Below the pieces are notes generated by a model. That model was not told the origin of the DNA, made no database searches, and was given only the letters and a program-made list of their open reading frames with translations. Shown in pieces: positions 5,432 through 35,710 of a stretch of DNA of 64,000 bases. The position numbers and the translations under genes were made by a program. Numbering within the stretch: position 1 is the stretch's first letter; every line of letters starts with the position of its first letter. Source of the DNA: a virus (Duplodnaviria > Heunggongvirae > Uroviricota > Caudoviricetes); the IMG/VR virus record IMGVR_UViG_3300033495_000700, one strand, 5' to 3'.

Positions 5432-5846
5432 GCCACCCGTTGATCATGCCACGCATCACATGGTCGGGGATGCTCTTGCCAACTCGACTGGCCAACCGGC
5501 GAGCTAACTCAGTTGAATCAGGAGTACGAAACACCACGGCAATATGCTCGTAATTGGGCAGCATGTTGAACTTTTTCTTGCGGCTTTTGATTGTGGTACT
5601 GGTTTGATCCCAGATTATGGTATGCCCGTGCTCACGTGCAAATACCACCTGTTCTATCATTAAATCCACAGCCGTGGGCATGTAATCCTCGAACACTTGA
5701 TTGTAAGTTTTGCCTTGTGCTCTGGCATAGTGTTCTACAAACGCATCTGTAGACACTACAGTCAGCCCCAGTGCCCAATCTTGGTTCTTGATCCATGTGC
5801 TTTTGCCCGAACCTGGCACTCCCACTAAAACATACACTCTCGGCAT
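5382..5846 (-). CDS. polynucleotide 5'-kinase (T4 Pnk kinase-domain-like P-loop kinase)
   Basis: [22 protein letters not shown] compares well with T4 Pnk [21 protein letters not shown]. Start moved to ATG 5846. Confidence 0.7.
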   Translation of the reverse strand: [154 protein letters not shown]

Positions 5847-26665: not shown

Positions 26666-27172
26666 TCAATATTTTACTGACTGTGCCGGGTAAGTTAGTT
26701 TAAATTTTATTAAACAACCATTCTCGCCATCTTCACTAACTTCAATCCATATTTCTTTGTCCGGATATCTGGCAGCGATCTGATCGTAAAGATCCTCTGC
26801 CATCATTTCACAACTTTTGTAGTCAAGTTGCAAGGTTCCGTCTTGATATAGATTCTCAAGCCAGCGTTTGAATTGAATGAACTCTATGGCTCTATCTGAA
26901 TGTTCGACATCAATCCACACCCTGAAATGAAAGATGTGACGGTGAGCAGTAGCAAGAAACGATACATCATATTCATCTCCAGTGGCCAATGCAGGATCTG
27001 TGGCAGCAGCTGGATATTTATGGATGCCTTCTTTGCGGAATGTGACCCAGATCTTGCGATCTGCACGAGAGCGAACTCGCTCTCGTTGTTCTAGCAATAA
27101 TTGTTCTCTTTGCATCATAACATTATTCCAAAGTAAAAAGATTGTGAAAAGTTGATCGAGACATGGCCTCAA
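26666..27172 (-). CDS. hypothetical protein (weak PTPS/QueD-like FxAxAHR motif)
   Basis: DVSFLATAHRHIFHFRVWIDVEH loosely recalls QueD FEAAHRL...HGH.Y.V.V. Not firm. Confidence 0.3.
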   Translation of the reverse strand: MRPCLDQLFTIFLLWNNVMMQREQLLLEQRERVRSRADRKIWVTFRKEGIHKYPAAATDPALATGDEYDVSFLATAHRHIFHFRVWIDVEHSDRAIEFIQFKRWLENLYQDGTLQLDYKSCEMMAEDLYDQIAARYPDKEIWIEVSEDGENGCLIKFKLTYPAQSVKY

Positions 27173-27680
27173 GTTTCTTCATGGCGCCATCTGTGAATCT
27201 AAACTGATATGATCTAGAACCATTGGCCTGTCGCTCAAAAAACCCATAGAAACCACCTGATATGTAATCACTCTCATTGCCTAGAATGATTTTTTGTCTA
27301 GCTGCTTCGTAGCATTTTTCAATTTTTTCTTGTATGTGAGATATTGAAAAATTATACACTTCTGCCGAGACTATGACTTGATCTTTGGTCTTGACTCGAT
27401 ATTGTCTCTGTAATTTGCCATAGATCACAGATTCTCTGTACGGAGTCAATTTAATATCCTCGGGAGTCATCCTACCAACTGTGTGTGCTGAAACAGCATC
27501 AAGATCTCTTGATTTGACTTCTGTTTCGATCTCCGGTATATCTGGCCCGGGCGCATTAGACATAGGATAGCCTTGCTCGCCAAGTTCCTTTTCAATATAT
27601 CGACCTGCTGCGCCACCAAAATTTGATGGGACCAATTTACCAACCATTTTCGCTTTGAGTTGAATAACTTTGGCTTTCAT
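27123..27680 (-). CDS. hypothetical protein
   Basis: 185-aa ORF inside the dpdA operon. Confidence 0.4.
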   Translation of the reverse strand: MKAKVIQLKAKMVGKLVPSNFGGAAGRYIEKELGEQGYPMSNAPGPDIPEIETEVKSRDLDAVSAHTVGRMTPEDIKLTPYRESVIYGKLQRQYRVKTKDQVIVSAEVYNFSISHIQEKIEKCYEAARQKIILGNESDYISGGFYGFFERQANGSRSYQFRFTDGAMKKLEAMSRSTFHNLFTLE

Positions 27681-28183
27681 AACAGTTCATCCTTGGTATA
27701 TTTAGACCAGTCAGTAAAGTGGTCACGATTTTGTAGTTCATGTATGCTGTGACACCAAACACCCGGGTTGGTGGCAGCAAAGTCCTTGTCGTCTATTTTG
27801 AGTGTGGCATTATAGCCCAACAGTTTGATATACGGCAGCTTGACCGAGATCATTGGAATAAAATTATGATCTTCTGTTAGGCTGGATTCCAACAGGCCTT
27901 CTACACAGTTGACATCAATATCAAGTGTACACAGATACCCTTTTTGCAAAAAGTACAAAATCATATTTTCCCACTGCGACCACTTTATGAAGTCGGTAGT
28001 GTTGATGTTTGGGAAACTTTGATTGGCACCAAAATAGATATGCTCACAGCCTTGTATATTGGCAACAATATCATCCACACTTTGCACACCAACCACAAAC
28101 AAGGTTTTCTTGCCCAATGCTGGAGTGTGTTCTACTTCAGTTCCATAAAAGAACTTGGCGTTCTCATGGCCTTCTCGATTCAT
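27677..28183 (-). CDS. hypothetical protein
   Basis: 168-aa ORF directly downstream of dpdA. Function unknown. Confidence 0.4.
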   Translation of the reverse strand: MNREGHENAKFFYGTEVEHTPALGKKTLFVVGVQSVDDIVANIQGCEHIYFGANQSFPNINTTDFIKWSQWENMILYFLQKGYLCTLDIDVNCVEGLLESSLTEDHNFIPMISVKLPYIKLLGYNATLKIDDKDFAATNPGVWCHSIHELQNRDHFTDWSKYTKDELL

Positions 28184-29742
28184 ATTTGATCCTGTTCAAG
28201 TTGTTGCAATGCATGTGAGTTTAACAGATCTTCGGGATCAGCGTCAACTTGTTCCACATCAAATAATGCCGAAAACTGTGTATTGGCATTCATGGCCTTC
28301 TTGCCTTTGAATCCACGTGTGCCAATGATATCCATCCAATATCTGCTGTATGATTCTATAATGGCTTCGGACTCTGCACGATCCGTGGTGGCAAATATAG
28401 CCTCCACAATATCTGCAAAGTGAGCATGATCACCGTTTTCGTTCCACATCATGTAAGGCCATGATCCAGAATCAAATGTACGATTGGCACGTTGTACAGC
28501 TTCCAGGTGCATCCACACATTATGGCCCATCAACAGTGCATATGAGAATGAATCCCAAGATGTCTTGCCTTCTTTACCAATCTTGTTTAGATCGCCGGGC
28601 TTGTAGATACACACATCCTTCATGGTCAATAATCGACTGATTGGGCTTTCATCAAAGTGATCAACCAATTTATCTGCTAGCACTGCTGTACCGTAAGGTC
28701 GTGTGTCTGTGCTGTATTTTTTATCATCAGCAATAGGGCTCATTCTATAACACCACTTTTCATTGTGCGCTAGATCAATGTGATGATACACTTGACCATT
28801 AGCGGTGGCCAGAAATGGACTTGCACAGTCAAAAGAAATAGTGAAATTGGGATTCACATACTTTCTAATGGCTCGCTGAATCACAGTAAGCAGTACCGCC
28901 CATTCCAGTTTTGATGTACCCAAGAAGTGCATCCAGTCGTGCTTGCCCTGTTGCAATAAATTATCATGCCGCAATGCTACCAAACGTTTGAGAACCAGAT
29001 GCACATCGCACATGTTCTGGCCACCCATACTCCAACCATCAAAATGTGTGGTAGGATACTTTGCAGGATCACAAAAGTCTTTCATTTCCTGATACCATTG
29101 TTCTGCTGAGGTGTGATTGTCACCTTGTAACACGTTCAAGAACCGGGCTCCACCGTTTTCTTTACCTTTGCGATGGGCCATGAAGTATTTGTTGTTGAAC
29201 TTGGTGGCATCCACAGCTTCTTGTAGTGTGGTAATTTGACAGGCTCGTGATGCTTTCTTGTCATGAATAACCCAGGTGGGAATATCCAAGATCATTCCGT
29301 AGTCACTCACACTATCCAACCAGGTCAGCACTGCTGAACGTTTCTTTTGAGCTTTGGCACAGCCTGAATTGGCACGCCAATCACCTTCCCACAAGCCCTT
29401 GGCAATCTGGAATCCTCCAGAGTCTCCTAGCATAAACGTGCCAGGTTCTCGATTGCGAACCATGTCTTCTGACCAGTCTTGCTTGGCAAGATCTAGATTA
29501 GCGTGCCCACCTGAATACAAACTCCAGCGATATGGAAACAATGCTTTTTGGCTGTTGAGCCAATTCATCATTTCCATATCTGTCAGCCCAGCTGGCATAC
29601 GTGCAGGATCCACATATGGCCCATTGCGTTGCTTGCCCACGAACGTGGCATAGAATCCTGAGATGGCCGGAAGGAAAACGGCGTATTGGCTTTGACCATC
29701 TGGACCAGTTTGCTTGGCTGTGAGATTGTCTTGATTGATCAC
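28180..29742 (-). CDS. dpdA: DpdA-like 7-deazaguanine DNA transglycosylase (tRNA-guanine transglycosylase superfamily)
   Basis: LGDSGGFQIAKGLWEGDW contains the TGT catalytic DSGGFQ motif. 520 aa. Sits with folE, queD and queE. Confidence 0.65.
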   Translation of the reverse strand: MINQDNLTAKQTGPDGQSQYAVFLPAISGFYATFVGKQRNGPYVDPARMPAGLTDMEMMNWLNSQKALFPYRWSLYSGGHANLDLAKQDWSEDMVRNREPGTFMLGDSGGFQIAKGLWEGDWRANSGCAKAQKKRSAVLTWLDSVSDYGMILDIPTWVIHDKKASRACQITTLQEAVDATKFNNKYFMAHRKGKENGGARFLNVLQGDNHTSAEQWYQEMKDFCDPAKYPTTHFDGWSMGGQNMCDVHLVLKRLVALRHDNLLQQGKHDWMHFLGTSKLEWAVLLTVIQRAIRKYVNPNFTISFDCASPFLATANGQVYHHIDLAHNEKWCYRMSPIADDKKYSTDTRPYGTAVLADKLVDHFDESPISRLLTMKDVCIYKPGDLNKIGKEGKTSWDSFSYALLMGHNVWMHLEAVQRANRTFDSGSWPYMMWNENGDHAHFADIVEAIFATTDRAESEAIIESYSRYWMDIIGTRGFKGKKAMNANTQFSALFDVEQVDADPEDLLNSHALQQLEQDQI

Positions 29743-30461
29743 TTGGTTTGTGCAGGTAAAATGTAGTTGTAAACTGCCATACCAGAATCCACTGTGATCT
29801 GCATACAGCCGTCATCACTGATCTTCATGGTCTTGTCTCCAACCAGGCCCAAAATACTGATCACTTGTGGAATAGGCCAAGACCAGGTGCGTTTGAGATT
29901 GCCAGTTACATCATGTTGAAACACAAAGTTACCGCTGTGTGTGGAATGATCTCCAAAGAAAAACTTCAGATGCTTGTCTTCAACTTTGACTTGAAAGTTA
30001 GTTTCTTCAGAGTTGGCCTGCCACTGCATTTTCAAACGCTGAATAGCTGCCACTGTGGGTTCAAAGGTGATATGCCAGTTTACACCTTTGAATTTCAAGG
30101 TCTTGAGTTTGTCATTCACAACTTCACTGGCCATGAACCTGTAGTTGTTGCGGAAGTCTCCTGTTTTGTTTTCAAAGTTGATGCCATCTGGTTCGCCAGT
30201 ACTTCTACGTGTGATAGTTAACTTGGCATCTTCACGATACTCTTGCAGGTTAATCAAAGTCTTGATTTTGCCAAGATTGGGCATACCAAACGTGCCAACA
30301 AAATCAGCAACAGGGTTGGCAAATTGTGCTTCCACAATAACTGAATTATCAGCAGCCAGGCCGTTTACTGTTGTGGCTGCATCTGTGCCGGTGACTTTGA
30401 TCAAGTCGATACAGCCAAGATCAAATGTGTGTTGCACTAGGTCTAAGAGATTGTCTTTCAT
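29739..30461 (-). CDS. sliding clamp (T4 gp45-like), tentative
   Basis: 240 aa. N-terminal pattern LLDLVQHTFDLGCIDLIKVTGTD...TVNG...ADF.GTFG resembles gp45 LLKNFATINSGIMLKSGQ...AVNG...YDLNGFLG. It lies next to the polymerase. Confidence 0.45.
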   Translation of the reverse strand: MKDNLLDLVQHTFDLGCIDLIKVTGTDAATTVNGLAADNSVIVEAQFANPVADFVGTFGMPNLGKIKTLINLQEYREDAKLTITRRSTGEPDGINFENKTGDFRNNYRFMASEVVNDKLKTLKFKGVNWHITFEPTVAAIQRLKMQWQANSEETNFQVKVEDKHLKFFFGDHSTHSGNFVFQHDVTGNLKRTWSWPIPQVISILGLVGDKTMKISDDGCMQITVDSGMAVYNYILPAQTK

Positions 30462-30582
30462 TTTTGGGTCCTTTTAAATAATATTCTCAATTGGTCTAAG
30501 TCTAAACCATTATAGTGTTGTATGACAAGAATGTCAACTACTTTTGGTGGAATTTGTTCTGCTGTCACTGAGTTACTCAGTG

Positions 30583-31569
30583 TCATTCAAACGAAAATAA
30601 GCTAGTAAATGTATTTGCTGTGTTTGTACTTGATTGCAAGTCCCAGGACAGCACACCCAATAGATTGTCAATCTTTTGGTCCACCACAGTGGCTTCCATG
30701 TTAGCATCATCAAACGGCAGTTCTTTAAACCAGGCTGGCAAATGATGCTCGTCTGTGGGATACCCAATACTGGTCCACCCTAGAGCATTGCTCTTGAGTT
30801 TGCATACAATGGTTTTCATACCATCCACAATCTGCATGGAGTAATTGTCTGAATTCATGCGTCGCAATGTGTTCCAGTTCAATGCAGCTCGAACATGTCC
30901 GGGCATGTTGGACTTGCCATTTTTTTCTTCTAAATTGCCATACTTGGTCAAGTTGTTCACACGCTTGGGTGAGCCTTTTTCCCAGCCCGGGCGTTCGGTA
31001 AATTTGTATTTGAATTCTCTGATACATTCCACAATTTCTTCTCTCTGTGTTCCTGTTAGTACCTTATTTAGAAGATCGCTAAGGAACTCTTGAATAACCA
31101 CCGGAGTATCACTGCGTTTTAGATCCAGACCCATGGCCTTTACCTTGCCCGGTCGGCCATTTACATCCACACGCTTGTTTTCTTTGTCAATGTACAGCAC
31201 AGCATAACGCTTCTTGGTAATAAACAAACCGGTACGTGCTACAATTTCTCGACCACCACGAATCACAGATCCCATGTCTCGTGGACAATGAAATGCCTGT
31301 TCCATGAATCCAGGAAAAGAATCATTCACTTGTTCGGCTATGGAGTTGTACAATGCAATACAAGTTTCTGCAGACCACTCCATTCTACCATCTTCAACTT
31401 CAGCTTGAACCATGGGCCACGCTGAAAAGTAACACGAATCTGTGTTATGTACTAAAATATCATTTGCAAAGAAGAACGGATCTTGTTTGTCAATGCTTAT
31501 ATCATACACATAGTCGTCAATTTCGCCAAGGCATTCGACGCTCTTTACTGTTGTTCTTTCAATATCCAC
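30583..31569 (-). CDS. 43: DNA polymerase (family B) C-terminal fragment, preceded by the C-terminal split-intein half (IntC)
   Basis: GTG start right after a TAA. Begins VDIERTTVKSVECLGEIDDYVYDISIDKQDPFFFANDILVHN|TDSCYF. The IntC resembles Npu DnaE IntC (VYDIGVERDHNFALKNGFIASN). The extein then supplies the TDS of motif C and the thumb domain. Confidence 0.8.
   Translation of the reverse strand: MDIERTTVKSVECLGEIDDYVYDISIDKQDPFFFANDILVHNTDSCYFSAWPMVQAEVEDGRMEWSAETCIALYNSIAEQVNDSFPGFMEQAFHCPRDMGSVIRGGREIVARTGLFITKKRYAVLYIDKENKRVDVNGRPGKVKAMGLDLKRSDTPVVIQEFLSDLLNKVLTGTQREEIVECIREFKYKFTERPGWEKGSPKRVNNLTKYGNLEEKNGKSNMPGHVRAALNWNTLRRMNSDNYSMQIVDGMKTIVCKLKSNALGWTSIGYPTDEHHLPAWFKELPFDDANMEATVVDQKIDNLLGVLSWDLQSSTNTANTFTSLFSFE
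31444..31569 (-). other. split intein C-terminal half (IntC, 42 aa) ending HN, with +1 Thr
   Basis: ...YVYDISIDKQDPFFFANDILVHN followed by TDS. Confidence 0.75.
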
Positions 31570-31767
31570 TGGATTACTTTCTTAATTATTTCATGCTTAT
31601 TTGCTTTGAACTCGGATTCCAATATTACCAACGTCTTGAATCCAAGGTCCTGAACAGTCTGTAATTTTAGCATATCTCGATGCCTGATTTCAGCCGCAGT
31701 TTTACCTCGCATGATTGCAGAATCCGCATATACTGCTGGGTTAGCATGCCAGTAATCACCGTTAAAT

Positions 31768-32295
31768 TCATGTAGATAGGCAAATTATCAAATCATTTGG
31801 CAGGATATCAACAGGCTTAACTTCAATCAGGAATCCGTCACGATCTACCATTACGCTGTGATCTTCTGTCACTGTAACCGACTTATCATTATGCAATGTT
31901 ATTTTGTACAGTTTCTTTTTAGTTTTATGTCGCATAACATAAGAAATCCTACTCAAAACTGGCGCATCGTCGAACGCATTAAAGCCGACTACTTTAGCAA
32001 ACGACTGAACGCCGTATTCTTTATCACCATTACGTTCGTGTTGCTGGCACTGATTATATAACTCTGCAATTGTGATCTGTTCCGAATCGGTACGAATCAG
32101 TGTATCTCCGGTTACACTGTCGCCATATATGATACTTTTACCACTGTGATCATACTCGCCTGTGATGCATTCATTCACATATGCATCCATGTGCTTGGCA
32201 ATACTGCGACCCACCAAGGTTGTTGACTGTCCAATACGCTTGTCAAAGAATCTGCAGCCGGGATTCAAGATGGCACCATACACATTTATGTTCAG
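31768..32295 (-). CDS. 43: DNA polymerase (family B) middle fragment (motif B to YGD) fused to the N-terminal split-intein half (IntN)
   Basis: (L)NINVYGAILNPGCRFFDKRIGQSTT...IIYGD then SVTGDTLIRTD...TVTEDHSVMVDRDGFLIEVKPVDILPNDLIICLST*. The extein aligns to T4 gp43 INSLYGALGNVWFRYYD...LYGD. The intein carries blocks A and B (TxxH). Confidence 0.8.
   Translation of the reverse strand: MNINVYGAILNPGCRFFDKRIGQSTTLVGRSIAKHMDAYVNECITGEYDHSGKSIIYGDSVTGDTLIRTDSEQITIAELYNQCQQHERNGDKEYGVQSFAKVVGFNAFDDAPVLSRISYVMRHKTKKKLYKITLHNDKSVTVTEDHSVMVDRDGFLIEVKPVDILPNDLIICLST
31771..32118 (-). other. split intein N-terminal half (IntN, ~116 aa, Ser1)
   Basis: It begins immediately after YGD and is followed by a stop and then a 198-nt spacer containing several in-frame stops. 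Confidence 0.7.
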
Positions 32296-33742
32296 CTAAC
32301 TTCGCTAAAGTTAGTTCGTTTAGATTTACTAAACCGCCTTATATTTCTATAAGGATCAGACTATATCACCATCCAATTATTGGATGCCCCCCGTTTCGAT
32401 TCGCTTGAATCTACGTCTTTCGACTAGTCGTTGAACCTTCATATTGCTATGCTTGGCTGCTGATTGTCTTCAACTTAATGGTCAGAGTTTCCAGCAATTA
32501 GAGGAGTTATTCAACTATTGTTACCAATAGAGGTCGCAGTATCTTTACGAATTTAAATTAATTTTCTTAACCAATTGGCGCTTATCCCAAAACACTATCT
32601 GTTTTTTGACTTCTTCTTGATTTTTGTGAAATATTTTATTGTCGGAAATAACAAGATCATTTCTTGCACAAAACTCCTTTAACTCAGCAGCAGTGCCTTT
32701 TTCTAGCAATGTATTGAGATCGTTAATATTCATCTATTCCTCTCTTGTTGAAAATTTGTCGGTTGTGCTCGTTTTGTACTTCTTTAGTCTCGAAAATAAT
32801 CTCCGGGGACCAATTGTCTGATGAAATTCTTACGATTTGAATTCCTTCTTCTAAGCATATCTGATGCTTACTGATATCATTTTTTATCGATGATTCTTTT
32901 CGATGCCAATATTCTCCATCAACTTCTACTAATAATAGCATGTCTGACAAGTAAAAGTCAAATTTTTTCTCCCTAACGGGATATTGAGTGACGTATCTAA
33001 TATTATTTTTGTTTAAAAATTGTTCAAATTGTATTTCTAAACTTGTAGTTTTTTTATTTGGGAATACTAATTTGTTTTCTTTTAAATATTCTTTTCTCCG
33101 AATACTCAAGTTGAGTCGATATTTTTCAAATTCGATCAAGTCATCTTTACGTCTTCTCCACGCCTGTTGTTGATTTAATGTTTTTTGTTGTTTTACATCT
33201 GGCAGTAAGACAAGTTTTTTACCTTTTTTTGCAATAGAAAGATTTCTTTTAGTTTCGTCAGTGTGTGTTACTCCAGGCTTCCCTATTCTGGATTCGTGAT
33301 AACACTTTTGGCATTGCATGCCGTTTAAAAAATTCCCCAAGTTCACTGTATAAGTCCCATGGTGTAAACATTTTACTTGTATTTGATCAGTTCTCGTTAA
33401 CACTTTATTTGGAAGAGCAACAATAGAATAATTGTTAGTTTCTGCTTGATATACTTCTTCTAAAGATATAATATTGTTAGTATTAATATGATTCCTACAT
33501 CTAACGTTATCTACATTGTCTCGAAATCTTTTGGTAATCGTTACTGTTTTGCTACAAATTTCGCACACAGGTATTGGATCACTCCTTAGGTATAGTTGTA
33601 TGGCTCCTGATAAATCAGAAATATTTTCTTTACCTCCGTAGTACTCTATTAATCGTTTAAACTGTCGGGGATACTTTTTCTTAAAATCATTAACAAAATT
33701 CATAATATTTCCTTTATATTATTTATCCTGTTACTTTTCAGA
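32296..33742 (-). mobile_element. 1.45-kb insertion in polB motif B; putative HEG-containing group I intron (a precise split gene is the alternative)
   Basis: Exon 1 ends ...SISQKN and exon 2 begins (L)NINVYG, together recreating the KxxxNSxYG region. The 3' part contains GACTA ... 70 nt ... TAGTC (a P7-like pair), a ccttataGAAAtataagg GNRA hairpin, two further hairpins and a terminal ...ttaG before the exon. A TAG stop sits just inside. Confidence 0.5.
32723..33703 (-). CDS. homing endonuclease with Vsr/DUF559-type (EVDG...H) nuclease domain
   Basis: C-terminal FDFYLSDMLLLVEVDGEYWHRKES...DISKHQICLEEGIQIVRI. The N-terminus is Cys-rich. It starts 40 nt after the stop of polB exon 1 with an AAAGGAAA RBS. 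Confidence 0.65.
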   Translation of the reverse strand: MNFVNDFKKKYPRQFKRLIEYYGGKENISDLSGAIQLYLRSDPIPVCEICSKTVTITKRFRDNVDNVRCRNHINTNNIISLEEVYQAETNNYSIVALPNKVLTRTDQIQVKCLHHGTYTVNLGNFLNGMQCQKCYHESRIGKPGVTHTDETKRNLSIAKKGKKLVLLPDVKQQKTLNQQQAWRRRKDDLIEFEKYRLNLSIRRKEYLKENKLVFPNKKTTSLEIQFEQFLNKNNIRYVTQYPVREKKFDFYLSDMLLLVEVDGEYWHRKESSIKNDISKHQICLEEGIQIVRISSDNWSPEIIFETKEVQNEHNRQIFNKRGIDEY

Positions 33743-35362
33743 TTAATTTTTTTGACTAATGGATAGTCTGTCAGGTATTGTGATACCGCTTGACAAGTCG
33801 TTCCATAGGTTTTTAGTTTTCTGCATGTCTAGACGTTCACTATACCAGCGTTTGAGCAAGCCTGGGATTACACCTTCTTTTTCGTAGGTGAATATGGTAC
33901 CATTGGCACTGAGGATCCATGGTCGATTAGAGTCAAACAGCATCTTCCAAATTTCAGCAGCTGAGTGAACAGTTTCCTCGCCATCCTGCCAGTCTATGGT
34001 GATCTCTGTGCCACGTTGCTGTTCCATCACAGCAGTGTATTCTAAGCTGGCAAACAATCCTTCCCATGCAGCAGCAAAGCTATCTCCGCCAGCTATTTTG
34101 TCTTGGATTAGCCGGTCAGTCAGTGTGGGTCTGAGTTGGCCGACAATGGTTTCTGGACCCATGTTAAGGGCCCGAATAGCACTGGGATAGAGCGAGTTGA
34201 TGTCGATGCTACCAATCCAGTCGTGGATCCCTTTTTTGGGATAAGCAACATAGGCACCTGCGGCTTGCGTGTCATCATCTGTGAGTCTTTCTTTACGGTT
34301 AGGAACTACCATACCACGTTCGTGAGCTTCAATAATAATTGCTTGCTCAGTCACAGCCACTGCACCCATTGTGGTCGGCAACAGCACGGTATTTTCATGT
34401 GCCAGGGTATTGGCCAAGCTCAAGAATTTAAGTTTCTTGTCCAGCTTGCCGATCAACATTGTGTCCTGGCGATTGTAATCAATAAAGATCTTGAAGTTCT
34501 GGTTGTACAACTGATCCAGTGTGCCTTCAAATGCAGTCTTACGACCAATTTCTTCGTATTCACCAATGGCGTCTAAGGCATAGCTGTGACGTTCTTCATA
34601 AGTGTATTTGCGATACAGTTGCATATAGTCCATATGCACTCGACCTACCAAGTCATAGGTTTGATTCTCTGCACCAAATCGTTCAAACATACGTGGCTTG
34701 GGAAACTGATTCCATAAGCACATACGTCTAGTGTCATCTTTGCTGAGAACTCTGGTGATTCGATTCACAGTGTAGGGAATGTCGTAACCTTCCGAGTTCC
34801 ATCCAGTGAGAATGTCTGCATCTTCAATAAGATCCAGAAATGTGTTCAACATGTCTGCTTCTTTTTCAAACATAAAGCAGTTGTCAAACTCTGCTGCAAT
34901 CTCTTTGGCAGTTTCCATGCTCATATGACGTGGAGGTACAGCCAGCGTCACAATTTGATCCAGCCAATCCATGTACACAGAGATAGCAGTGATTGGGTTG
35001 AACGGATCTGTCACAGGTGAGAAACCACGTTTGGGATCAAAGTCTACTTCAATGTCATAGAATGCTGTGTGCAGTTGAGGGCCGTCTTTGCCTTTGTAGT
35101 TTTCCTCTAAACAACGAAAGATAGGGTTAATATCACTTTCGTAGATTTTCTTGCTGGAGTGCATACGCACTTCCTTGCGAAACTCTTTGTTGTTGCGTGA
35201 GGAAAATCTACTCACTGGCGTGTCGTAGATGCTACGAAACTTGCCTTTGGGGTCGTCGTAGTAAAGAACGTAGTTGGCTGGATACTCTTGGTATACCCGT
35301 CGGCCATCTCGGCGTTCAACCACGTGAATTCGATCATGTGCTCGATCATATAAACAGTCCAC
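33743..35362 (-). CDS. 43: DNA polymerase (family B, T4 gp43-like) N-terminal fragment: 3'-5' exonuclease plus palm motif A
   Basis: FYDIEVD (Exo I), GWNSEGYDIPY (Exo II), YNRQDT (Exo III), SIDINSLYPSAI (motif A). Ends ...SISQKN*. Confidence 0.9.
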   Translation of the reverse strand: MDCLYDRAHDRIHVVERRDGRRVYQEYPANYVLYYDDPKGKFRSIYDTPVSRFSSRNNKEFRKEVRMHSSKKIYESDINPIFRCLEENYKGKDGPQLHTAFYDIEVDFDPKRGFSPVTDPFNPITAISVYMDWLDQIVTLAVPPRHMSMETAKEIAAEFDNCFMFEKEADMLNTFLDLIEDADILTGWNSEGYDIPYTVNRITRVLSKDDTRRMCLWNQFPKPRMFERFGAENQTYDLVGRVHMDYMQLYRKYTYEERHSYALDAIGEYEEIGRKTAFEGTLDQLYNQNFKIFIDYNRQDTMLIGKLDKKLKFLSLANTLAHENTVLLPTTMGAVAVTEQAIIIEAHERGMVVPNRKERLTDDDTQAAGAYVAYPKKGIHDWIGSIDINSLYPSAIRALNMGPETIVGQLRPTLTDRLIQDKIAGGDSFAAAWEGLFASLEYTAVMEQQRGTEITIDWQDGEETVHSAAEIWKMLFDSNRPWILSANGTIFTYEKEGVIPGLLKRWYSERLDMQKTKNLWNDLSSGITIPDRLSISQKN

Positions 35363-35419
35363 ATAACTAATGATAATTCTCCTTTTTATTACTTGTTGGG
35401 GTTAAGGTGTCTACTTAAC

Positions 35420-35710
35420 TCAATTAAGTATCATCCTTAGTAGTCCAATCGAATCAATTGATACTAGCAATATATAATTGGCAAGCATCCCAAAGCTGCG
35501 CCTAGTGTAGCTAGCCCAAGCGTACATAATACAGCCAAAGATCCAAATAGGATATAGCACAATAAGAGGAGGGATAGGTACAGTGAGGGCCATAGTGATT
35601 GAACATCCGACACTAATTGCCCAAGCCGCAATTTCCACAATAAAACGAACAGGTGAACTGGTGTAGTCATCGTGTATCCATCTGAAAATATCTTTAAATG
35701 CAGGGATCAA
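35420..35710 (-). CDS. small membrane protein
   Basis: 96 aa with at least two hydrophobic helices. Confidence 0.4.
   Translation of the reverse strand: MIPAFKDIFRWIHDDYTSSPVRFIVEIAAWAISVGCSITMALTVPIPPLIVLYPIWIFGCIMYAWASYTRRSFGMLANYILLVSIDSIGLLRMILN

Follow-up and report, generated by a model that had tools for sequence, protein, structure and literature searches.

A predicted naturally split intein between the motif C aspartates of a gp43-like DNA polymerase from an uncultured phage, beside the remnant of a Vsr-like endonuclease gene

The 64,000-nt stretch of phage DNA analysed here (IMG/VR record IMGVR_UViG_3300033495_000700, Caudoviricetes) carries a T4-type, gp43-like family B DNA polymerase (PolB) gene that is broken into several pieces, all on the minus strand; we refer to the whole stretch as the window, and all positions are counted along it. 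The polymerase is encoded in three cistrons: gp43A (539 aa); gp43B-1, a 117-aa extein with a 116-aa intein N-half (IntN); and gp43B-2, a 42-aa intein C-half (IntC) with a 286-aa extein. Our subject is the break between gp43B-1 and gp43B-2, which falls within motif C and involves the following pieces.

32119..32282, minus strand: N-extein part of 43B exon 2, (L)YGAILNPGCRFFDKR...GKSIIYGD, ending at the first Asp of motif C.
31768..32118, minus strand: IntN, 116 aa plus a TGA stop, with Ser1, the NX motif R63-H64 and block B T84-E-D-H87.
31545..31769, minus strand: 3' remnant of a Vsr-like homing endonuclease gene (HEG), the last 74 codons (EFNGDYWHANP...VIQWILKEQQ) plus stop.
31712..31545, minus strand: open reading frame (ORF) of 55 aa with an ATG start, within the HEG remnant.
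31444..31569, minus strand: IntC, 42 aa with a GTG start, with the block F Asp in VYDIS and H41-N42 in block G.
30583..31443, minus strand: C-extein, 286 aa plus stop, with TDSCYF (the second Asp of motif C), the remaining palm and the thumb.

The N-side ORF (32283..31768) reads VYGAILNPGCRFFDKR...GKSIIYGD and then SVTGDTLIRTD...VTVTEDHSVMVDRDGFLIEVKPVDILPNDLIICLST, running from polymerase motif B through IIYGD into IntN and ending at the TGA at 31770..31768; it starts with VYGAILN and ends with DLIICLST, and the open frame extends back to 32295. The interval that follows (31767..31570, 198 nt) holds eight stops in the IntN frame beyond the IntN TGA. Downstream of it the second ORF (31569..30583) opens with a GTG and encodes VDIERTTVKSVECLGEIDDYVYDISIDKQDPFFFANDILVHN joined to TDSCYFSAWP... 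and the rest of the 286-aa C-extein. The exteins are close to those of two related loci, L014 and L015: the N-extein part of exon 2 is 96-98% identical to the matching stretch of both, and the C-extein is 97% identical to the former and 96% to the latter. An earlier note, made from the letters of this DNA alone, had described a motif-B-to-YGD fragment running into an intein N-half and then a stop, a 198-nt spacer with several in-frame stops, and a GTG-initiated ORF with an intein C-half fused to TDSCYF and the thumb; all three descriptions hold on the minus strand. As judged from these frames, the two aspartates of motif C lie on different polypeptides.

We found that both halves resemble inteins well beyond chance, as judged by profile and structure-database searches. 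The Pfam family Intein_splicing (PF14890) matches the IntN ORF over profile positions 5-94 of 155 (E = 2.8e-9; 37.4 bits, the curated cut-off being 35.8) and the start of the IntC ORF over positions 117-155 of 155 (E = 1.6e-4; 22 bits), so that the halves align to intein blocks A/B and F/G, a check that the earlier note had proposed. When IntN and IntC were joined in silico, the best match in the PDB was to 9HTH, the Aes123 PolB1 split intein, whose insertion point is the neighbouring DTD/S site (E = 3.2e-21 over residues 2-158, a span of 157 residues); the fused halves also match PI-PkoII (E = 6e-9), the Pho RadA intein, gp41-1 and NrdJ-1. The class 1 catalytic set is complete, comprising Ser1, T84-E-D-H87, the block F Asp in VYDIS, the terminal H41-N42 and Thr+1. 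R63-H64 of IntN constitutes the NX histidine motif, which has been reported as specific to Ser1 inteins (PMC10189870). Ser1, R63-H64, TEDH, VYD and HN+T are conserved in relatives, and the consensus of IntC over 45 homologous ORFs with a 42-aa IntC is MDi.RT.vKs..CLGE.ddYVYDiSi..QDPfFFaNDILvHN. Three non-catalytic cysteines are present in the window's intein.

Removal of the element joins IIYGD to TDSCYF and yields YGDTDSCYF, as found in intein-less homologues such as P0001 and L015; YGDTDS occurs without an intein in 70 of the 120 best homologues. The predicted mature gp43B (117 + 286 = 403 aa) has exactly the length of P0001, which lacks both intron and intein. The break between the halves aligns with the linker, between blocks B and F, of two contiguous alleles (the metagenome locus L040 and Salicola phage SCTP-2). 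Taken together, the motifs and the layout of the ORFs identify this as a predicted class 1 naturally split intein, with IntN and IntC on separate ORFs and the break at the canonical split site, and the claim of a naturally split intein in motif C of a T4-type PolB stands. A tblastn search of the window found no other inteins or related HEGs elsewhere in it.

The spacer was described correctly in its length and its stops, but the sequence can be identified: a Vsr-like HEG has been deleted here, and the spacer is its 3' end. The third frame of the 198 nt together with the first 25 nt of the IntC ORF reads EFNGDYWHANPAVYADSAIMRGKTAAEIRHRDMLKLQTVQDLGFKTLVILESEFKANKHEIIKKVIQWILKEQQ followed by a stop, with a match to Pfam MTES_1575, a family of Vsr/DUF559-like nucleases, in the C-terminal half of the profile (positions 51-95 of 96, E = 4.4e-4). 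Its identity is 82% with the 74 C-terminal residues of the 317-aa HEG of L094, 68% with the HEG of L010 and 34% with the VSR-like one of Aeromonas phage Aes508. The remnant stop (31547..31545) gives an overlap of 25 nt with the IntC ORF counted from the GTG at 31569. Intact HEGs of 316-317 aa occupy the same place in L010, L014, L023, L027, L049 and L094 and end 25 nt inside the IntC ORF; L095 has a HEG call of 283 aa that begins at a later ATG, and in L096 the contig end cuts the gene. The 25-nt overlap of HEG and IntC is recorded for L010, L014, L023, L049, L094 and L095.

No intact HEG lies between IntN and IntC in the window, where about 74 of about 317 codons are left and the N-terminal 243 or so are gone; the lost stretch before EFNGDYWH presumably held the first catalytic Asp, by analogy with other Vsr/DUF559-type nucleases. 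Relative to L094, the deletion begins at base 2 of the IntN stop codon and reaches about HEG codon 243, or about 760 nt, and its junction (ACA/TGAATTTAAC) made the present IntN TGA, leaving IntN at 116 aa. The ratio of raw non-synonymous to synonymous differences (pN/pS) between the remnant and L094 is 0.24-0.27, inside the range of pairs of intact HEGs, and one conserved Trp has been lost (VVWE to VILE). Besides this remnant, the earlier note had not seen a group I intron and a second HEG further upstream in the polymerase gene, which occupy the following positions.

33743..35362, minus strand: gp43A-like cistron, 539 aa, with the exonuclease domain, motif A (DINSLYPS) and its own stop codon; the first of three polymerase polypeptides.
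32723..33703, minus strand: free-standing homing-endonuclease-like gene, 326 aa, between the 43A and 43B cistrons.
32547..32733, minus strand: 43B exon 1 (MNINDL...KKINLNS plus the first base of a Leu codon), carrying the first half of motif B.
32283..32546, minus strand: group I intron (264 nt, with inferred boundaries) that lies in motif B and separates KKINLNS from LYGA.

The gp43A-like ORF matches Pfam DNA_pol_B_exo1 (E = 1.7e-20) and DNA_pol_B (E = 2.9e-10). A 62-aa ORF at 32733..32545 (minus strand) ends in KKINLNS and a stop, about 260 nt of non-coding sequence follow, and exon 1 can be aligned to the beginning of P0001, a 403-aa homologue that has no intron. The Rfam group I intron family RF00028 matches 32556..32337 on the minus strand (82.1 bits, E = 2.2e-20), and joining ...AAT TCG T to TG TAT GGT gives KKINLNSLYGAILN, exactly as in intron-less homologues. 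The 326-aa ORF is a Vsr/MTES_1575-like nuclease (MTES_1575, E = 3.4e-8, with weaker matches to DUF2726, Vsr, DUF559 and NUMOD3) whose sequence is unrelated to that of the intein-associated HEG. Among 87 fetched related loci, the group I intron and the 326-aa HEG are found in the window strain only, and many relatives (for example P0003 and P0008, at the 43A end) are uninterrupted at the 43A/43B break and at the intron point. The polymerase is accordingly laid out as one that is predicted to require RNA splicing, protein trans-splicing and the association of two subunits.

We put at about 85% the probability that the window encodes a class 1 intein that is naturally split, its Ser1 and Thr+1 implying oxyester chemistry, at YGD/TDS in motif C of the gp43-like PolB of an uncultured phage, and that the free-standing HEG which split it has been largely deleted. 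The split-intein reading is supported because the intein blocks, the conserved start position of IntC, purifying selection and the existence of a trans-splicing homologue agree, and the predicted assembly of motif C by trans-splicing is well supported by homology. The group I intron would self-splice, gp43B-1 and gp43B-2 would be translated separately, and IntN and IntC would associate. An N-O acyl shift at Ser1, transesterification onto Thr+1 and cyclisation of Asn42 would then join ...IIYGD to TDSCYF... to give the 403-aa gp43B, which would work with gp43A. The predicted tryptic junction peptide of spliced gp43B is SIIYGDTDSCYFSAWPMVQAEVEDGR, while unspliced gp43B-1 would instead show ...SIIYGDSVTGDTLIR.

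Several observations weigh against this reading. The expression signals of the IntC cistron are its weakest point, although the conserved start position offsets this in part: the start codon is a GTG, and the Shine-Dalgarno sequence lying 6 nt upstream of it (TAAGAAAGT) is no more than degenerate. In most relatives the pair is AAGGT or AAGGA and an ATG; L094 has the same weak Shine-Dalgarno sequence with an ATG, and L049 also has a GTG. The window's GTG came from a CAA to CAG change that is silent in the remnant frame. A promoter scan of 30400-35600 returned 18 promoter-like sites against 14.7 +/- 3.8 expected, which is no enrichment and is silent on transcription of the C-terminal cistron; the scan of the same interval found no minus-strand terminator between the cistrons. 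The Pfam match of IntC taken by itself (22 bits) falls under the curated cut-off for the whole domain. A single-sequence AlphaFold2 model of the fused halves had a mean confidence score (pLDDT) of 40.7 and was unusable, so that the fold is argued from sequence homology, as is the splicing of the window's own intein.

The alternative that fares best, although we consider it improbable, is that the intein halves are mere high-affinity docking domains and that the polymerase is assembled non-covalently, with no peptide ligation. The gp43A and gp43B chains of this polymerase already function apart, by inference, and in the split NrdA of phage Aeh1 a phage ribonucleotide reductase is assembled non-covalently via interaction domains derived from a mobile element (PMC3045599); splicing of the window's intein is, moreover, a prediction. 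Yet every catalytic position that only splicing requires (Ser1, H64, T84/H87, D23 of IntC, H41-N42 and Thr+1) is kept in the window and in 47 homologues, and with a 158-aa HINT domain left between the motif C aspartates the active site would probably be disrupted. Splicing does occur in the homologous Aes123 PolB1 intein (PMC11923092).

It is less probable still, and in our judgement very unlikely, that the gene is a decaying pseudogene, killed by HEG invasion and a later deletion while another polymerase replicates the phage. Three selfish insertions lie in the gene and the IntC start signal is weak, as such decay would predict. As distance-corrected dN/dS failed for most pairs, synonymous sites being saturated, selection was assessed from raw pN and pS. 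Between split alleles pS is 0.7-0.9, with pN of 0.17-0.21 for IntN and 0.07-0.11 for IntC; relative to L094, which has the closest intein, pN/pS is 0.15 for IntN and 0.05 for IntC. The exteins are tighter still, with pN of 0.015 against pS of 0.45-0.70 relative to L014, which points to very strong purifying selection. All reading frames are intact, the deletion having left a 116-aa IntN with a new in-frame stop, and the organisation recurs in dozens of diverged lineages.

Least probable of all, and hardly tenable, is that the stops are an assembly or sequencing artefact, or that the 198 nt are removed at the RNA or translation level (by an intron or by bypass), so that the intein is truly contiguous: IntN and IntC do share a reading frame, with 198 nt amounting to 66 codons, and a real group I intron lies 500 nt upstream, but an Rfam scan at E up to 1 left the spacer without a match, its codons in another frame are homologous one by one to those of the HEG 3' end, relatives are split likewise with an intact HEG, other remnants or almost no spacer and always have a start codon at the IntC position, and the sole contiguous metagenome allele (L040) has none there. 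The possible artefact over 31570-31767 that the earlier note had raised was checked against three independent Logan assemblies (SRR9159693, SRR28106061 and SRR28106113), which come from different runs, share 100% identity with the window over 3.0-6.0 kb and give gene calls of 171, 55 and 328 aa, as in the window. An IntC that ends in HN/TDS and has a common start position opens 47 of the 120 best homologues of the C-terminal ORF, and it is exactly 42 residues long in 45 of those 47. Because the assemblies are identical, the IntC start is conserved and pN is far below pS, there is a strong case against both assembly error and a dead gene.

We then consider the naturally split intein in its evolutionary setting, where the histories of the intein and of the host gene are discordant. 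Compared with L094, IntN is 89%, IntC 95% and the remnant 82% identical at the amino-acid level (pS 0.32-0.39), whereas the exteins are far apart (72-78% identity, pS 0.68-0.80). Conversely, L014 has exteins 96-97% identical to those of the window, an IntN only 69% identical and an intact HEG, and L015 has exteins 96-98% identical and no intein. The presence of intein and HEG is polymorphic in near-identical polymerase backgrounds, and the finding of close inteins in distant exteins, and the converse, indicates that the element has moved between polymerase alleles, as homing elements do.

The states of the break differ among related loci. L040 is a contiguous mini-intein; L010, L014, L023, L027, L049 and L094 are fractured by a HEG; and L016 is nearly HEG-free, with about 12 HEG codons remaining. 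Relative to the window, the HEG remnant begins about 4 codons earlier in L011-L013 and about 5 codons later in L035, where the last three IntN codons come from HEG sequence in another frame. In Aeromonas phage Aes516, 27 HEG codons remain, fused to IntN. The deletions differ among lineages and so are independent, and all spare the 3' end with the IntC start; at least three of them (in the window, in L011-L013 and in L035) removed the 5' part of the HEG, each sparing the 3' 70-78 codons or so. In L011-L013 (ENA BUCK21-1 scaffolds, at about 5635-5790) a run of N lies exactly between the IntN stop and the HEG remnant, and in L011 and L012 the end of IntN is duplicated on either side of the gap. 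This N gap could reflect mixed HEG-plus and HEG-minus variants that misled the assembler.

Dassa et al. (2009) described fractured genes of this kind (gp41-1 to gp41-9, NrdA, NrdJ-1, IMPDH-1 and DnaE; PMC2677866). As in the window, these include phage replication genes in which the intein halves flank a free-standing Vsr-like HEG whose 3' end overlaps the start of the IntC cistron. PolB is not among the fractured enzymes listed there, and the window keeps a 74-codon remnant rather than none. Step III of their model, HEG loss as in locus gp41-7, is the state of the window, which is best described, from the remnant, as a predicted endonuclease-loss stage of the fractured-gene pathway and not as a canonical fractured gene. 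A mini-intein would first have been fractured by an invading free-standing Vsr-like endonuclease gene, and the composite element of intein and HEG would then have moved between polymerase alleles. In the window lineage, a deletion of about 760 nt would have taken the first 243 or so codons of the endonuclease, with its 3' end, bearing the translation start region of IntC, being retained. It is conceivable, though we hold this only tentatively and think it somewhat improbable as a whole, that the clade contains all stages of intein splitting as living alleles; that the HEG 3' end is kept by selection as an expression cassette for the IntC-thumb cistron (by ribosome loading or translational coupling, perhaps with a promoter); and that the Ser1 inteins have shifted their site by two residues (YGD/TDS against YGDTD/S).

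The two sites are distributed as follows. Insertion at YGD/TDS, with Thr at +1, is seen in the window, Klebsiella phage KP13-7, SCTP-2 and 47 metagenome ORFs; insertion at YGDTD/S, with Ser at +1, is seen in Aes508 and Aes516, PA5oct, CP21, PolB16 (PMC10189870) and the metagenome ORFs P0042 and P0043. The window's own polymerase clade includes both insertion points, which are separated by two residues, and the Ser1 inteins at them are homologous, with 37-38% identity (window 31444-32118, L001-L006, P0042 and P0043); either a shift of the site or separate invasions could account for the pair.

The closest described system is that of the T4-like Aeromonas phages. The Aes123 PolB1 split intein, taken from the PolB of such a phage, has been crystallised (9HTH) and trans-splices (PMC11923092; see also PMC13014065). 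In the GenBank records of Aes508, Aes516 and AS-gz (JN377894, JN377905 and MF479730) the order is gp43A, a HEG, gp43B-1 with a group I intron and the N-intein, a VSR-like HEG, and gp43B-2 with the C-intein, the VSR-like HEG being absent in Aes516. Like the window, these phages have a T4-like gp43 PolB with a Ser1 intein in motif C, broken at the canonical split site into an IntN of about 116-120 aa and an IntC of about 40 aa; their gp43A and gp43B are also split by a HEG, and motif B is interrupted by a group I intron. In Aes508 the halves flank a free-standing Vsr-like HEG, which in Aes516 has been deleted to a 27-codon 3' remnant. The Aes intein is 37% identical to that of the window (E = 8e-28). 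It sits two residues downstream, at YIDTD/SVVGD...VHN/SVYL with Ser at +1 in Aes508 and Aes516, whereas the window has YGD/SVTGD...VHN/TDSCYF with Thr at +1. The HEG at the Aes 43A/B break is of the GIY-YIG type, unlike that of the window, the Aes508 intron lies three codons further downstream, after LYGA, and the length of the remnant differs. The window's intein is a homologous intein at a neighbouring site and not the Aes123 PolB1 allele. Equivalents that are not annotated occur in PA5oct-like Pseudomonas phages, Klebsiella phage KP13-7 and Campylobacter phage CP21.

The earlier note's statement that no split intein had been described in a PolB motif C fails on two counts: the Aeromonas phages have one two residues downstream, and Nanoarchaeum equitans has one at the same site (PMC549080; PMC2677866; PMC10189870). 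The N. equitans PolB (NEQ068/NEQ528) carries a bipartite intein at position III, or pol-c, at the YGD/TDS site; pol-c is defined by YGD/TDS in Mimivirus and YID/TDG in archaea (PMC549080). The window, with YGD/TDS, has the pol-c insertion point (YxD/TD). The intein of Neq Pol is described as the first naturally split one that is cysteine-less, with activity at 50-70 deg C (PMC10189870), and its trans-splicing is credited to Choi et al. 2006 as cited by PMC2677866. It is, like that of the window, a naturally split Ser1 intein between the D and TD of motif C; unlike it, the Neq Pol intein is archaeal and thermophilic, its halves are at unlinked loci, and it bears no trace of an endonuclease. A PDB search with the window intein gave no match to the Neq Pol intein at E up to 1.

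Two contiguous mini-inteins share the window's insertion point and blocks, but have no stop or start between the halves and a linker of 5-10 residues at the break. That of Salicola phage SCTP-2 (gp179, MF360958), with IIYGD/SVTHDTII...ILLKN/TDSSYF, is 32% identical to the window; that of the metagenome locus L040 is 73% identical, with a 5-residue linker and ATA (Ile) at the position of the start codon in split alleles.

The window phage has no close relative in culture: when the 5.1-kb locus was compared at near identity with the DNA of 50,697 phage records, only trivial matches of 40-50 nt came back, and the best relatives at the protein level are PA5oct-like Pseudomonas phages, at about 50% identity. 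Directly downstream of the polymerase are five successive ORFs (168, 185, 168, 520 and 240 aa; 26666-30461, minus strand) that match only PHROGs of unknown function and have no Pfam match at E up to 0.001. This block also follows the polymerase in related metagenome loci, the 240-aa ORF being called in L007-L010 and L095. A reading of 26666-29742 as encoding proteins of the 7-deazaguanine pathway was dropped, as PHROG and Pfam scans gave families of unknown function or nothing.

The window adds, then, a new example of a known arrangement, one with biochemical proof from related phages and from an archaeon. Protein engineering has a demand for split inteins that use Ser/Thr nucleophiles and are active at ambient temperature, and these are described as very rare (PMC10189870; PMC13014065). 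The clade supplies dozens of natural Ser1/Thr+1 variants with a 42-aa IntC and may serve as a natural source of mesophilic split inteins, though the practical value is modest and the window's own intein still has its three non-catalytic cysteines. The evolutionary value is likewise modest: the related loci form an unusually complete natural series for testing the gene-breaking model of Dassa et al., including what must persist as the endonuclease decays. For the phage itself, the locus would represent another essential replication enzyme that needs post-translational stitching, on top of RNA splicing and a split into two subunits.

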